NCBI GenBank assembly: GCA_048882505.1
Contig: JBHLRO010000003.1
Location: forward strand, 150,001 to 182,000
Direction: 5' to 3'
DNA length: 32,000 nt
Origin: Candidatus Thorarchaeota archaeon
GTDB lineage: Archaea > Asgardarchaeota > Heimdallarchaeia > Hodarchaeales > Hodarchaeaceae
In this document: positions 19,086 through 26,824 of the stretch, in pieces
How the letters are laid out: every line of letters begins with the position of its first letter
How positions within the stretch are numbered: the first letter of the stretch is position 1
Position numbers and translations under genes: made by a program
Notes under the pieces: model-generated
Databases searched by the model: none
Told to the model about the DNA's origin: nothing
What the model saw: the letters and a program-made list of their open reading frames with translations, nothing else

Positions 19086-19986
19086 AATCTTACTGATCTC
19101 AGCTGTCGTGGCTGTTGCTTGTGCTTTGCCTGGAACTTTTTTAGTATTAAGAAAGATGGCGCTAATTAGTGATGCAATAAGCCACTCCATTCTCTTGGGA
19201 ATAGTTATCGCGTTTTTCATTACTCCTGATTTGAATTCGCCTTTGTTAATTATTGGAGCGGCGTTGATGGGAGTTCTAACTGTTACATTGACGGAGATTA
19301 TCGTAAGGACAAGAAGGGTCAAAGAAGATGCAGCTATTGGCCTGGTATTCCCATTTCTATTTTCAATAGGCGTAATATTAATCACACGATTTGCAGGCAA
19401 TGTGCATCTAGACATAGATGCCGTTTTAAGTGGTGAAGTTATTCTAACGCCCTTTGATCGTCTTAAAATAAACGAAATAGACTTAGGGCCGAGGGCATTT
19501 TGGGTGATGCTTGGAATCTTGGTATTAAATCTGTTATTTATTATATCGTTTTATAAGGAACTGAAAATCGTGACTTTTGACCAACAACTTGCAGCTTCAC
19601 TTGGTATTAACGTCGGGTTTATTCATTACGGACTTATGACTATTACAAGTATAACGGCAGTTGGAGCCTTCGATTCCGTCGGCGCAATTCTTGTTGTAGC
19701 GTTGATGATAGTTCCTCCTGCAACAGCGTATCTGTTAACGGAGAAATTGAGTGATATGATCGGGATGAGCGTCTTAGTGGCAATTATATCCTCGACCGCT
19801 GGATTTTTCATTGCCCAATTGTTTAATACCTCAATATCAGGCTCTATGACCACCATATGTGGAATAATTTTCTTCATGGTGTTATTTTTTGCCCCAAGGC
19901 GTGGAATTTTCCAGAAGTATTTTCGGCATGGCCAGTTAGGGGCCAAATCCTCTGTAAGTATTGAAAACCAAAGTACTTTGAATTAA
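19069..19986 (+). CDS. troD: Metal ABC transporter permease (TroD type)
   Basis: LVLRKMALISDAISHSILLG, AFDSVGAILVVALMIVPPATAYLLT; overlaps troC by 17 bp. Confidence 0.92.
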   Translation: MSAQTEILLISAVVAVACALPGTFLVLRKMALISDAISHSILLGIVIAFFITPDLNSPLLIIGAALMGVLTVTLTEIIVRTRRVKEDAAIGLVFPFLFSIGVILITRFAGNVHLDIDAVLSGEVILTPFDRLKINEIDLGPRAFWVMLGILVLNLLFIISFYKELKIVTFDQQLAASLGINVGFIHYGLMTITSITAVGAFDSVGAILVVALMIVPPATAYLLTEKLSDMIGMSVLVAIISSTAGFFIAQLFNTSISGSMTTICGIIFFMVLFFAPRRGIFQKYFRHGQLGAKSSVSIENQSTLN

Positions 19987-20026
19987 ATCAGCGTGTTGGA
20001 TCCAATCTTGTCCAAAAACGGAACTG

Positions 20027-20045
20027 TTTTTTTTCGCATTTTTTT
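20027..20045 (+). terminator. Candidate archaeal oligo-T terminator of the tro operon
   Basis: T8 (20027-20034) and T7 (20039-20045) tracts 40-60 bp after the troD stop. Confidence 0.45.
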
Positions 20046-20218
20046 GTCCTTATTTATCTCTCCTCTACTTTACGCTCTATTTTGAGGGGTAAAGGACATA
20101 CCTGAGAAGTTAAAGGGATAAGAACATTCTGCCAAAGCAGATACCAAGGAAAAACCTATATTACGATTTCCCCTATGATTATGTATAAGAGACCCTACAA
20201 TTCGCCCTATTACACCTG

Positions 20219-21508
20219 ATGATAAGCAAAGATACCTTTGAAAAAGGCGCGTTTCTTGAAGTATCCTTCGATCAAAAGTTTAGTGGTTTGGATGAGGGAT
20301 TCAAGAAATGGTTAGATGTGGCTAAAGATCGGATTTTTTCGCTTGCAGCAGGAAATCGAATCGCTCAGATAGCTCCGAAAATAATGAGAATTGGATATGC
20401 TAAGGTTCTATATGGGGCGAATCAACTGGGGGCTGATGTAGAGGCTTCAAAATCCTTTGTGATATTCGCCCCAGACGGAACCTGCTCGTTTAATGGCGTT
20501 AGAACCAAGCGAGGTTTTGCTTACGGTGCAATCCTAGATATGGAATTCGACGGACTCATAGCAACTAATAATTCCATGCCCAATGGCTGCGGATATAGCC
20601 TTTACGAGCTAATCGACCCTATGCCAGATGATCAGTTATTTGGTCTAATAAATTCGGCGTATACGAGGTTAGGGGAAGACCAGATAAATCAATTAGGCAA
20701 AGGTAACCATTTTTCAGCGATTTATTATGTTAAAGATCCTTTGTCAGGTGAAGATAGCGGACGACGGTTTGTTGCTGTTCATTGTTCCGGTCACGTGGGA
20801 ACAGACACGCTTTATTATCCGGAGAAGTGGCTGAAAGATACTGCGGGCTATCATGAAATCTATACCCCACATGGAAAGGTTATCCTATTGGAAGAGGATG
20901 CAAAGGGCCTTTACCTTAAAAAATTCCAGAACACAGATACGATAAATACATTTAATAGGGACCATACGATGGAGAGCATATTTAAAAATCAACAGGAATG
21001 GCGGACATTAAGCAAAATTACGCATCAAGGATTAATTCAAGAAGGAAAATTACACCTAACTGGCACCCAAATCGCCAAGGGGATTGTACCGATTGCATTT
21101 AATCCTGAGGAAGGATTGATTGGAGTTGAGATAAAACCTAATCTAAATGCAGGATTCGTGGATAAATGGGAATACGGACAGAAAATTAAGGATATGGGGG
21201 TATATAACAAAGTCAAAGCACTCAATTTCGCCCCCCATGGCGGAGGTTATGAATTTCGATTTCCTCTAGAATACTTTAACATTCATTTGGGACCACATGG
21301 AATTAATCAATTTGATCTCCAGTTTAAGGGTAATGGGGTTCAATTACAGTTTAGAAACTTCCGAGAAATCCGAAACTGGATGACCTATCGCCGCAAAACT
21401 CCCTTGATTCATAAAATGGGGGAATCAGATCTCGTCAAGATTATTTATGATATGCCGTGTCTCATCCAAATCTATCCCCACCATAATATACCCGGCGGTC
21501 ATTCTTAG
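20219..21508 (+). CDS. Divergent RtcB-like (RNA 3'-phosphate ligase family) protein
   Basis: Ordered motifs PDG..GFAYG, PNGCG, LGKGNHF, VHCSG, THQG, PHGGG match RtcB PDxH..GFPIG, DxxCG, LGSGNHF, HxGSRG, HN, HGAG. Confidence 0.7.
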   Translation: MISKDTFEKGAFLEVSFDQKFSGLDEGFKKWLDVAKDRIFSLAAGNRIAQIAPKIMRIGYAKVLYGANQLGADVEASKSFVIFAPDGTCSFNGVRTKRGFAYGAILDMEFDGLIATNNSMPNGCGYSLYELIDPMPDDQLFGLINSAYTRLGEDQINQLGKGNHFSAIYYVKDPLSGEDSGRRFVAVHCSGHVGTDTLYYPEKWLKDTAGYHEIYTPHGKVILLEEDAKGLYLKKFQNTDTINTFNRDHTMESIFKNQQEWRTLSKITHQGLIQEGKLHLTGTQIAKGIVPIAFNPEEGLIGVEIKPNLNAGFVDKWEYGQKIKDMGVYNKVKALNFAPHGGGYEFRFPLEYFNIHLGPHGINQFDLQFKGNGVQLQFRNFREIRNWMTYRRKTPLIHKMGESDLVKIIYDMPCLIQIYPHHNIPGGHS

Positions 21509-21689: not shown

Positions 21690-22955
21690 TTGTCCCAAGG
21701 TTACAAATTGATCAAAAGAAGAATTTTTCAGCCAGGCTTTTCTTTTACTCAAACAGATATTGATTTAATAATTTCTAGCATCACTTCTGGTGAGCTTTCT
21801 CCGCTAGAGGCCTCGGTATTTATTACAAGTCAAATTTTTCAAACCTGGAGTATTGAAGAGATTGCCTCTCTAACCAAGGCCATTGCATTCTCGGGAGACA
21901 CGGTGGATTGGGATGGAGCTATGACATTCGACAAACACTCGCTGGGAGGGGTTCCAGGTAACAAGGTTACGCTTTTGATTGTACCAATAATTGCAGCTGC
22001 TGGACTAAAAATTCCGAAAACCAGTAGTCGAGCCATAACGAGTCCCAGCGGAACCGCTGATACCGTTGAGGCCTTGGGGGCTTCTGTCAAGTTCACACTA
22101 GATGAAATGAAGAATATCGTTAATGACGTTGGTGGGCTTTTCGCGTGGACTGGGGGATTGGGGATAGTGCCTGCTGATGCCAAAATTATACAAGATGTCC
22201 AATTTCCCTTGGAGATCGATCCTGAACCCATGATGATGGCTTCTATCCTTGCGAAGAAGGTGGCAATGGGAATAAAGTTCCTGGCGTTGGATATCCCGAC
22301 TGGAATCGGAACCAAGGCCAAAGACCTTAATACTGCAAAACGGTTTGCCCATAGATTCGCGGAATTGGGGAGAAACCTGGGTGTACAGATTGAAAGTGGG
22401 ATGACGTACGGTTCATCTCCTGTTGGTCATGCCATAGGCCCCGCTTTGGAGGCGCGAGAGGCGCTGGCGGCATTGAAAGATCCCCAAATGGCCTCTGAGT
22501 CCCTCGTAGGTAAAAGTACCTCTCTTGCAGGAATTCTTTTAGAAATGAGCGGGAAGGTTATAGCAGGAAATGGTCCCGACATGGCGCGTCAAATTCTGTT
22601 CTCGGGTAAGGCATATCAGAAATTCCAAGAGATTTTGGAGGCTCAATCCGCGGATCCCAAAATCACACCAGAGGAAATTGAGGTAGGAAGCGAGATTTAT
22701 GAGTATAAGGCCTCGCAAAATGGATGGGTGGTTGAGATCAACAACGAAGTCATATCTCGTGCTGCCCGAAGTGCGGGAGCTCCCAAGGACAAAAGGGCAG
22801 GAATCCAATTTTACAAGAAAAAGGATAGTGTGAAACGGGGCGATGTGATTTTTTCACTTCATGCATCATCCTCCGAAAACCTATCAGCGGCAGAAGCGGA
22901 ATTGACGAAGAGCCTTCCAGTAACCATTGAGGGAATGCTATTAGCTAGAGAATGA
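21690..22955 (+). CDS. deoA: AMP/NMP phosphorylase (thymidine phosphorylase family), lacking the usual extra N-terminal domain
   Basis: DKHSLGGVPGNK, IPKTSSRAITSPSGTADTVE, ASILAKKVAMG, IGPALEARE, ARSAGAPKDKRAGI. Confidence 0.9.
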   Translation: MSQGYKLIKRRIFQPGFSFTQTDIDLIISSITSGELSPLEASVFITSQIFQTWSIEEIASLTKAIAFSGDTVDWDGAMTFDKHSLGGVPGNKVTLLIVPIIAAAGLKIPKTSSRAITSPSGTADTVEALGASVKFTLDEMKNIVNDVGGLFAWTGGLGIVPADAKIIQDVQFPLEIDPEPMMMASILAKKVAMGIKFLALDIPTGIGTKAKDLNTAKRFAHRFAELGRNLGVQIESGMTYGSSPVGHAIGPALEAREALAALKDPQMASESLVGKSTSLAGILLEMSGKVIAGNGPDMARQILFSGKAYQKFQEILEAQSADPKITPEEIEVGSEIYEYKASQNGWVVEINNEVISRAARSAGAPKDKRAGIQFYKKKDSVKRGDVIFSLHASSSENLSAAEAELTKSLPVTIEGMLLARE

Positions 22956-23075: not shown

Positions 23076-23387
23076 ATGCAGGATACGATAATTATTGTAG
23101 AAGGAACCCGTGACCGGAAAACACTCCAAAAGCTCGGCATTTTTAATTTGATCCTGGTTAAGGGAGGAAAATCGGTGGACGAAGTAGTGGATCTAATAAA
23201 CGGGGATAAACGTATAATCATACTGACAGATTTTGATAAAGAAGGAAAAAGGTTAAGAAGGGAATTTAAAAGAAGAATTCAACGCCACAAGGGAATCATC
23301 ATTGATTCATTTGCCCGTCATTTTCTTTACAAAATTTGCCGGAAAAGGGGAGTAACAGAAATCGAAAATCTAGATCGCCTTTTTTAG
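23076..23387 (+). CDS. Small TOPRIM-domain protein; start may lie upstream (~23019)
   Basis: IIVEGTRD and IIILTDFDKEG TOPRIM motifs. The frame is open upstream of the ATG. Confidence 0.85.
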   Translation: MQDTIIIVEGTRDRKTLQKLGIFNLILVKGGKSVDEVVDLINGDKRIIILTDFDKEGKRLRREFKRRIQRHKGIIIDSFARHFLYKICRKRGVTEIENLDRLF

Positions 23388-25711: not shown

Positions 25712-26824
25712 TCAATCACGCGCGTACTCGGTCGTAATAGAGAGCCAAAATGGAATGGAAAAGGCTACTAGAAAGAATATTGTGTGGTAGACGATATAAT
25801 CGGGAAGATGGAATTGCGTAACTCCAGAGATTATCGAAGTTATTAGGTATTGGCTTAGGACCAAAACAAATGCAATAATAATAAAGCCAATTAGTCCCTT
25901 TCGAACTTTAGGAACCGACCGCTTTTTTAAAGTTTTAATCCAATCCGCAGTTACCTTAGATCTAGAAATGAGGACTGTTACGGTTATGTAGATGATTGTA
26001 ATTAACCCGACCGCAAGGGCGAATATAGAAATCAAAACATAAACCAGATTTAAAATGTCGTTATTCAGTTGTGAGCCGAGAATGTCTGTTAGTTTATAGA
26101 AATCATATATAAGCGCGTACAGAAAACAATAGAACACATTTCTGGTAAAAACGTAAATTAATCCCGTTAAAATCGCGTAGATAAAAGTAGAGCCCAACCA
26201 GAAAATATTGCTTAATAGATTGGGAGTATTTAGGTAATATGACAAATCAAGTAGGATAAAACCAACACTAGAAGTCACCACGGCATGTGAAGGTGCCAAT
26301 CCGCGGTCCTCTAGGGAAGGGATTGCCGTTCGACGATAGATTAGTTCTGTGAAACCATGTATTACGACTCTTCCGATCAAGAAAAACGACAAGTACAACG
26401 GAGTAACGAATAGCAGATTATATGAGGGGAGATACCAAGGTAACAGTAATTCTATTGATCCCCCAAGGAACTCTGTTATAAGCGTACCAAAGCTTAATCG
26501 AATGCTCATGGCAACACAAAACAATACAAGCAACATAATCGAACTTTCCCTCGATAGGGTCTTATATTCGGCATCAATGACCTTTAAACGAGGTATAAAG
26601 ATAAAATATACAATTAAACTAACCAAAATCCCAGCCACAATCGGTGAAATAAGAAAGAGTAAATTGAAATCAAAACGAATATTGGCTTGATTGGCCGCCC
26701 AAGGAAGTAGGGATAGCGGCCAACTTATTAGGTTGATTAGGAAGTAACCCGAGGCAATGATAATTGCAGGGGTAAAGAAATTCAAAAAACTGTTTTCTAT
26801 CTCTACGATCTCGATTTTCCTCAT
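25712..26824 (-). CDS. CPBP/Abi (type II CAAX protease)-like membrane protein with degenerate catalytic motifs
   Basis: Polytopic membrane protein. FTELIYRR, SSVGFILLD and GLIYVFTRN...YALIYD align to EExxxR, FxxxH and HxxxN. Confidence 0.6.
   Translation of the reverse strand: MRKIEIVEIENSFLNFFTPAIIIASGYFLINLISWPLSLLPWAANQANIRFDFNLLFLISPIVAGILVSLIVYFIFIPRLKVIDAEYKTLSRESSIMLLVLFCVAMSIRLSFGTLITEFLGGSIELLLPWYLPSYNLLFVTPLYLSFFLIGRVVIHGFTELIYRRTAIPSLEDRGLAPSHAVVTSSVGFILLDLSYYLNTPNLLSNIFWLGSTFIYAILTGLIYVFTRNVFYCFLYALIYDFYKLTDILGSQLNNDILNLVYVLISIFALAVGLITIIYITVTVLISRSKVTADWIKTLKKRSVPKVRKGLIGFIIIAFVLVLSQYLITSIISGVTQFHLPDYIVYHTIFFLVAFSIPFWLSITTEYARD

Follow-up and report, generated by a model that had tools for sequence, protein, structure and literature searches.

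A divergent RtcB-fold protein from a Candidatus Thorarchaeota genome is probably a catalytically competent member of a sister family of RtcB

A stretch of 32,000 nucleotides from a Candidatus Thorarchaeota genome (contig 3, positions 150001-182000, hereafter the window; genome size 4.3 Mb, completeness 94.6%) carries a gene for a protein, P0001, whose predicted structure is that of the RNA ligase RtcB. By its protein matches, the genome belongs with the Heimdall-group Asgard archaea and is of Hodarchaeales type. The gene is an open reading frame (ORF) on the plus strand at 20219-21508, stop codon included, and according to the list of open frames and their translations it encodes 429 amino acids. 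As judged from its sequence and its modelled structure, P0001 is probably a catalytically competent member of a sister family of RtcB, which would retain the RtcB chemistry and may apply it to a phosphate ester of a small molecule, a lipid or a polymer. To our knowledge, RtcB is the sole type of ligase that joins 3′-phosphate to 5′-hydroxyl ends, and it has so far been known from nucleic-acid work alone. The settings in which RtcB acts are tRNA splicing, the unfolded-protein response and the repair of RNA. If P0001 does act on a substrate other than RNA, the chemistry of RtcB would extend beyond nucleic acids in the Asgard archaea, the archaeal group closest to eukaryotes.

The AlphaFold2 (AF2) model of P0001, built from an alignment of 42 homologues (A1), has a mean predicted local distance difference test score (pLDDT) of 90.5 and a predicted template-modelling score (pTM) of 0.90, with pLDDT values below 50 solely in residues 1-13 and 425-429. 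A Foldseek search of the PDB with this model yielded 16 matches at E ≤0.001, all of which are RtcB proteins from human, zebrafish, Pyrococcus horikoshii and Thermus thermophilus (E 1e-10 to 2e-6, probability 1.00). In the VIA-align superposition onto 4dwq_A, 314 residues are matched with a Z of 21.5, a root-mean-square deviation of 3.7 and 15% identity; a further nine RtcB entries follow with Z 18.9-21.1 over 300-320 residues, and the next fold reaches Z 5.3. The initial annotation, made from the sequence letters, had proposed a highly divergent RtcB-like protein and had named a different fold as the observation that would speak against it; the fold recovered in the model is that of RtcB. A shape search of the ESM Atlas revealed further unannotated clusters with the same fold, in agreement with a search by language-model features. 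One of these clusters, with 366 members, is rich in Altarchaeota (TM 0.79); in another, the Pfam RtcB domain is carried by 13% of the members, and a third, of 936-residue proteins, has a Metallophos domain in 80% of its members.

In library searches, the Pfam RtcB profile scored P0001 at 11.2 bits (E 0.22) against a gathering cut-off of 27 bits, and the cut-off was passed by none of the 57 sequences sampled from the wider family, for which the best E was 0.0071. NCBIfam and PHROGs gave noise matches only, PADLOC gave none, and a single-sequence phmmer search of P0001 against the PDB found no match. A word-indexed search, on the other hand, returned 92 homologues, none with a precomputed Pfam domain. 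Those with a named source derive nearly all from metagenome-assembled genomes of Heimdallarchaeota, Kariarchaeaceae, Heimdallarchaeaceae or Hodarchaeales, with one from Thorarchaeota, and they are annotated as 'hypothetical' throughout except for one 'RtcB family protein'. When 1.84 billion cluster representatives were searched exhaustively with a profile, 351 clusters (at 50% identity) were collected with E ≤0.001, 87 of them with E ≤1e-30. A literature search on RtcB-like proteins, on RtcB in Asgard archaea or Heimdallarchaeota and on RtcB together with glycerophosphodiester returned no description of this family, which, being labelled 'hypothetical' almost everywhere, deserves a profile of its own.

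The conservation within the family is concentrated in a defined series of motifs. In A1, 26 columns are invariant, including K62, P85, D86, N92, R95, Y102, G103, N122, C124, G125, G162, N163, H164, F165, H188, Y232, H269, Q270, P339, H340, G341, G343, Y344 and E345. In the wider-family sample (A3, 57 sequences, mean column identity 26%) the invariant columns are solely G103, H164, H188, H269 and H340, whereas D86, G99, C124, G125, N163, F165, R247, G271, G282, P339, G341, G343 and R391 are conserved in at least 90% of the sequences; both C124 and D86 are kept in 53 of the 57. Given this conservation in the two alignments, the motif series of P0001 is far beyond chance. In P0001 the motifs read PNGCG, GKGNHF, VHCSGH, THQG and PHGGG, and the codon positions first assigned to them proved exact: 20588 for Cys124, 20705-20710 for Asn163-His164, 20780 for His188, 21023 for His269 and 21236 for His340.

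Besides the close homologues, the family comprises more distant members of about 390-410 residues with 25% identity to P0001. These share with it the fold family, the four His, the Cys and the GNHF, PHGGG and YR motifs, but they lack the C-terminal I-P-G-G tail of the P0001 clade and mostly keep a Lys or Arg at the position of RtcB Lys480. Each of the 21 genus relatives carries this distant type, frequently as two copies, and the P0001 clade is found in three of the 22 genomes searched (G000, the genome studied here, G016 and G009). A second family member of the present genome (G000:C1:510568-511800; L023:8515-9804, plus strand) encodes 429 residues with 25% identity to P0001 and no Pfam match, and is followed on contig 1 by an ORF of 989 residues (L023:10113-13082), likewise with no Pfam match. 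Many of the distant-paralogue matches in G001-G021 contain one in-frame TAA or TGA, which is probably alignment read-through past the true stop; the proteins concerned end about 10 residues short of the profile end. In P0248, a distant representative of 743 residues, an APH-type (aminoglycoside/choline-kinase-like) domain at 57-268 is fused to an RtcB-like domain at 324-735, an architecture that could serve phosphorylation of a substrate followed by its joining.

The genome also encodes a canonical RtcB, which answers a question raised in the initial annotation. The canonical rtcB gene (437331-438608 of contig 2; 541 bits to the Pfam profile and 512 bits to 1uc2) has an archease gene directly beside it (438774-439181), and the two RtcA-family genes of the genome are likewise on contig 2; as the window belongs to contig 3, the earlier remark that no archease or RtcA gene lies near the P0001 gene is borne out. 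Because a canonical rtcB with its archease is present elsewhere in the genome, P0001 is an extra, non-housekeeping relative and not the housekeeping tRNA ligase. A joint tree of 65 rows, computed by maximum likelihood with a quick method, likewise shows the separation: the branch between canonical RtcB and the family has full support and a length above 5 changes per column, although the alignment between the two groups is poor and the root and branch lengths are accordingly rough. The P0001 clade (28 rows) has 100% support and a stem of 1.7; within it, P0001 groups with P0002 (94%) and P0003, in a 96%-supported subclade that includes the operon-linked P0009, P0014 and P0025. A place inside a canonical RtcB clade, which would have spoken for an ordinary RtcB, was therefore not what was found, P0001 being below the Pfam cut-off and set apart by a long, fully supported branch. 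The earlier proposal of a distinct RtcB subfamily is supported by the RtcB fold, the separate tree position and the canonical rtcB of the genome itself.

The likely counterparts of the RtcB active-site residues were obtained from profile comparisons. P. horikoshii RtcB is matched by the A1 profile with an E of 0.0075, and in that alignment GNHF falls on GNHF and the VHCSG strand on VHTGSRG. The hhalign comparison of A1 with a canonical profile (A2, 25 sequences, built from the canonical RtcB of the genome, P0094) covers 245 columns at E 2.7e-4 and pairs Asn163, His164 and Phe165 with Asn202, His203 and Phe204 of the P. horikoshii enzyme, His188 with His234, His269-Gln270 with His329-Asn330, Tyr390-Arg391 with the invariant Tyr-Lys of the RtcB P-G-A-Y-K motif, and Tyr419 with Lys480, and His340 falls on His404 in three runs. 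The wider A3 profile aligns with the canonical one at E 0.0017 and reproduces the A1 anchors except for His329. In the N-terminal third, a weak local alignment (E 0.13) sets Cys124 on Cys98 and Pro121 on Asp95, with the invariant Asn122 one residue on. The initial annotation had the Asp before the Cys replaced by Asn, which is approximately so: this weak alignment has Pro121 in the place of Asp95, three residues ahead of the Cys, and Asn122 stands two ahead of it. The order of the predicted strands further suggests that the FAPD86G strand corresponds to the M-P-D-x-H strand of RtcB, and either Asn122 or Asp86 may take the metal-ligand role of Asp95.

In RtcB, the ligands are Cys98, His234 and His329 for Mn1 and Asp95, Cys98 and His203 for Mn2 (PMC8051266), and His404 attacks GTP to give a covalent RtcB-GMP (PMC8668186). 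The predicted Mn1 ligands of P0001 are the invariant His188 and His269 and, from the weak alignment, Cys124, and for Mn2 a counterpart of His203 is found in His164. At the aligned positions, the Cys, the four His and the Asn of the RtcB active site are thus kept in P0001. The residues that contact the guanine and the RNA strand differ. Guanine is read by Glu230, Ser409 and Lys504 in the human enzyme, which correspond to Glu206, Ser385 and Lys480 in P. horikoshii (PMC8668186), whereas the 5′-OH strand is held at its phosphates by Arg238 (Eco Arg189), Arg190 and Gln194, and Asn202 touches the 5′-OH nucleophile (PMC8051266). In P0001, the Glu206 position is Ala167, with Ala or Gly in most of the clade, and the Lys480 position is Tyr419, where the main clade has Tyr in 29 and His in 5 of 35 sequences. 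The Arg238 position is His192 (30 His, 5 Lys, 5 Pro and 2 Gln in A1), the Arg190 position is Leu151, in a region where the alignment is weak, and the Arg of H-G-A-G-R is replaced by Tyr344, which is invariant in A1.

The wider family presents a different picture at the guanine-reading positions, with Lys in 30 and Arg in 8 of 57 sequences at column 419, and with Glu or Asp in 17 and Asn in 14 of 57 at column 167. Since Lys or Arg is mostly kept at the former and Glu, Asp or Asn often at the latter, the loss of the guanine readers is a derived feature of the P0001 clade. The absence of a C-terminal Lys motif, which had been pointed out from the sequence of P0001, accordingly holds for this clade but does not extend to the family as a whole, where 38 of the 57 sequences have a Lys or Arg at the aligned column. 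The Tyr-Arg pair is widely maintained, with Tyr in 48 and Phe in 7 of 57 at column 390 and Arg in 56 of 57 at column 391. The P0001 clade is further marked by an invariant N295-P-E-E298-G loop and by a conserved but flexible tail ending in I-P-G-G, in which G426 is found in 34 and G427 in 31 of 35 sequences.

A clue to the substrate is provided by the genomic surroundings of the orthologues. Those with 46-55% identity, from other Heimdallarchaeia, are encoded directly beside a gene for a GDPD-type glycerophosphodiesterase, and a tandem Metallophos gene usually accompanies it. The genes run metallophosphoesterase, RtcB-like, GDPD in G038, G028 and G024, and RtcB-like, GDPD, metallophosphoesterase at the loci of P0009, P0014 and P0025 and in G030; G026 has the GDPD gene at least. 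A GDPD neighbour occurs in eight of the 14 lineages examined, most of which also have the tandem metallophosphoesterase gene, and the operon-linked P0009, P0014 and P0025 match P0001 over at least about 95% of the length (E 1.6e-158, 3.4e-149 and 2.3e-144, respectively). The GDPD partner is closest to ordinary glycerophosphodiesterases (best match 5t91, B. subtilis GlpQ-type, E 8e-22), and the metallophosphoesterase partner has a weak likeness to the phosphohydrolase 2dxl/2zo9 (E 0.003). Orthologues with 36-42% identity stand alone, one of them (42%) after a PstS-like binding protein and an ABC ATPase. No archease, RtcA, RtcR or kinase gene was found near the RtcB-like gene in any locus examined. 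In the present genome, the GDPD gene is on contig 77 (696-1454) and the tandem metallophosphoesterase gene on contig 2 (324115-325719), and the P0001 gene stands alone, having left the operon seen in the orthologues. Either it is able to function without the partners found in the operon form, or it was moved away from them. G023, which belongs to the same order, has its tandem metallophosphoesterase gene next to the GDPD gene (G023:C520:173-2559) and its RtcB-like gene on another contig, which indicates that the pair can persist without an adjoining RtcB-like gene.

From these data, a catalytic scheme can be proposed for P0001. The protein is predicted to bind two Mn(II)-type ions via Cys124, His164, His188 and His269, and His340 would become covalently nucleotidylated. 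His340 would then hand the nucleoside monophosphate (NMP) on to a phosphate monoester, or to a cyclic phosphate that has been opened, and attack of a hydroxyl on the activated phosphate would produce a phosphodiester. As the guanine readers and the strand-binding Arg are replaced in the P0001 clade, the nucleotide and the substrate are probably other than GTP and ordinary RNA ends. The GDPD and metallophosphoesterase neighbours of the orthologues, together with the kinase fusion in P0248, make a phosphate ester of a small molecule, a lipid head group or a glycerophosphodiester-type polymer the most likely substrate. A broader proposal, that RtcB-type chemistry makes or remodels phosphodiesters of non-nucleic-acid molecules in Asgard archaea and other microbes, with a cofactor other than GTP in the P0001 clade, is put forward tentatively and is itself rather doubtful; glycerophosphodiester lipid head groups and glycerol-phosphate polymers are equally speculative candidates for such targets.

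Several observations weigh against an active phosphate-ester enzyme of this kind. The residue equivalences derive from weak profile alignments (hhalign probability 15-42%), the match to Cys98 is a local alignment at E 0.13 supplemented by motif resemblance, and P0001 lacks an acidic residue at the aligned Asp95 position. The conserved basic residues K62, R95, R247, R391 and R392 could still bind nucleic acid, for example RNA. The orthologues that supply the operon evidence have 46-55% identity, and the P0001 gene is unlinked from GDPD and metallophosphoesterase genes in its own genome and in the sampled order. Orthologues of the GDPD and metallophosphoesterase genes are also found in 21 of 21 genus relatives and the P0001 clade in three of 22 genomes, and co-occurrence is uninformative because the two partners are present whether or not the clade is.

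The immediate surroundings of the P0001 gene are of another kind (Table 1). Upstream lie genes for a DtxR-type repressor, two multicopper oxidases, a ZIP transporter, a TIM-barrel protein and, ending at 19986, an ABC system of the TroA/ZnuA type. In the intervening spacer there are T-runs and, some 30-60 nt ahead of the ATG, A/T-rich TATA-like stretches, so that an own promoter of the P0001 gene is plausible from the sequence; a scan for bacterial-type promoters and terminators is uninformative for archaeal DNA. The transporter-operon arrangement is kept only in the nearest relative, G016, with 93% protein identity (P0002) and 88% DNA identity over 4.2 kb. One complete genome of the genus, G009, has two copies of the P0001 clade, with 68% and 70% identity (C1:285082-286197 and 1170658-1171863), one of which is flanked by genes for an ABC/FtsX transporter and a methyltransferase, and no GDPD or metallophosphoesterase gene lies within about 6 kb of either copy. 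Public sequencing runs listed with this gene amount to five DNA runs from three studies, with no RNA run among them.

Downstream, 181 bp separate the P0001 gene from genes for a thymidine-phosphorylase-family protein, a small Toprim protein and a zinc alcohol dehydrogenase. The first of these (21690-22955, plus strand, 421 residues) has weak partial Pfam matches, with Glycos_transf_3 over about 75 residues, and its product may be a diverged member of the thymidine-phosphorylase/AMP-phosphorylase family. The stand-alone Toprim-domain protein (23076-23387, plus strand, 103 residues) is kept in the closest relative, where it is called as 122 residues. A further ORF of 370 residues on the minus strand (25712-26824) has no Pfam match at E 0.001, and its counterpart in the closest relative has a weak Rce1-like (CPBP protease) match.

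Table 1 The P0001 gene, its predicted active-site motifs and the upstream spacer, in window coordinates.
Feature	Position	Strand	Basis
P0001 gene, RtcB-like	20219-21508	+	92 homologues; AF2 pLDDT 90.5; predicted RtcB fold, Z 21.5
Pro85-Asp86 of the FAPDG strand, probable counterpart of PD in the RtcB 'MPDxH' strand	20471-20476	+	Order of predicted strands
PNGCG with Cys124, probable metal-bridging Cys (RtcB Cys98)	20579-20593	+	Conservation; weak local hhalign
G-N163-H164-F165, aligned on RtcB GNHF	20702-20713	+	Hidden Markov model (HMM) match; hhalign; invariance
H188-C-S-G-H192	20780-20794	+	His188 aligned on RtcB His234, His192 on Arg238
His269-Gln270, aligned on RtcB His329-Asn330	21023-21028	+	hhalign, A1 against A2
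P-H340-G-G-G-Y-E; His340 aligned on His404, Tyr344 on the Arg of HGAGR	21233-21253	+	hhalign; H340 invariant
Tyr390-Arg391, aligned on the invariant Tyr-Lys of RtcB 'PGAYK'	21386-21391	+	hhalign
Tyr419 (Lys480 position), then the clade-specific I-P-G-G tail	21473-21499	+	hhalign; column counts
Spacer between the last transporter gene and the P0001 gene, 232 bp	19987-20218	+	Sequence read directly

The features assembled above would in part also suit other functions. P0001 might, like the extra RtcB paralogues of bacteria such as the RtcB2 that acts with PrfH on 16S rRNA, be a specialised nucleic-acid enzyme that joins or caps ends, repairing a particular RNA or capping 3′-phosphate ends of DNA or RNA, and in such a system the metallophosphoesterase encoded in the operons of the orthologues would heal the ends, a role that metallophosphoesterases play in other RNA-repair systems. 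The RtcB fold and the full His/Cys set would fit this well, several basic residues are invariant in A1, the retained Asn163 corresponds to the Asn202 that contacts the 5′-OH nucleophile in RtcB, and specialised RtcB paralogues are known (PMC13166195). We nevertheless regard such a function, though a serious alternative, as less likely, as the guanine readers are lost and Arg238, Arg190 and the Arg of HGAGR are replaced by His192, Leu151 and Tyr344, the conserved partner in the operon is a glycerophosphodiesterase of typical kind, for which no role with RNA is known, and no RNA-repair gene is found near the RtcB-like gene in the loci examined. A purely hydrolytic enzyme, that is, a two-metal cyclic phosphodiesterase or phosphoesterase serving for instance in phosphate scavenging with GDPD and the metallophosphoesterase, would account for the fact that both operon partners hydrolyse phosphodiesters and for the orthologue (42%) encoded after a PstS-like phosphate-binding protein and ABC ATPase; RtcB itself has an intrinsic 2′,3′-cyclic phosphodiesterase step (PMC8668186). 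However, the nucleotide acceptor His340 is among the five invariant columns of the family and the Tyr-Arg pair is kept, neither of which is needed for simple hydrolysis, and given the invariance of the nucleotide-accepting His a hydrolytic role appears improbable.

The position of the gene itself brings to mind a tie to the upstream Mn/Zn-type TroABCD uptake operon, with P0001 as, for example, a co-regulated Mn-dependent enzyme, since RtcB enzymes need Mn and the gene follows the last permease gene on the same strand after 232 bp. The initial annotation had noted this placement directly after a probable Mn uptake operon; the position stands, while a conserved link does not, the arrangement being found in the nearest relative only and the orthologues with 68-70% or lower identity having other neighbours. 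As it is shared only with the closest relative, the placement is probably incidental, and with T-runs following the transporter gene and a spacer long enough for a separate promoter, a functional tie is very unlikely. It is harder still to credit that P0001 is a non-catalytic or decaying paralogue. The patchy occurrence of its clade in the genus (three of 22 genomes) would agree with decay, but the frame is intact, the model is confident, the closest relative matches over the entire length at 93% identity, and none of the putative catalytic residues varies among homologues that share 37-93% identity.

The reading of P0001 as a catalytically competent sister-family enzyme is best appreciated by comparison with the canonical RtcB proteins (PF01139), as represented by P. 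horikoshii PH1602 (1UC2, 4DWQ, 4DWR and 7LFQ), T. thermophilus TTHA1785 (2EPG) and human RTCB (7P3B and 8ODO). P0001 differs from them by a structural identity of 12-15% and by being about 50 residues shorter, and the substitutions at aligned positions comprise Asn330 to Gln270, Glu206 to Ala167, Lys480 to Tyr419, Arg238 to His192 and the Arg of HGAGR to Tyr344. Its clade has the I-P-G-G tail and the invariant N-P-E-E-G loop, and its gene, unlike the canonical rtcB of the same genome, has no adjoining archease. The operon-form orthologues share with P0001 a fully supported clade, 46-55% identity, an identical motif set, the length and the C-terminal tail; in contrast to them, the P0001 gene has no adjoining GDPD or metallophosphoesterase gene, which is also the case in the genus and the order as sampled. 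Common to P0001 and the canonical enzymes are the fold, over about 315 residues with a Z of about 21, the order of the motifs, with counterparts of Cys98, Asn202-His203-Phe204, His234, His329 and His404, the P/C-H-G-x-G loop, and a Tyr-Lys/Arg pair near the C-terminus. The chemistry suggested by these residues is likely also common to both, with a two-metal centre and a covalent His-NMP. What the window contributes is a stand-alone copy of the family, together with the clade-specific loss of the guanine-reading residues.

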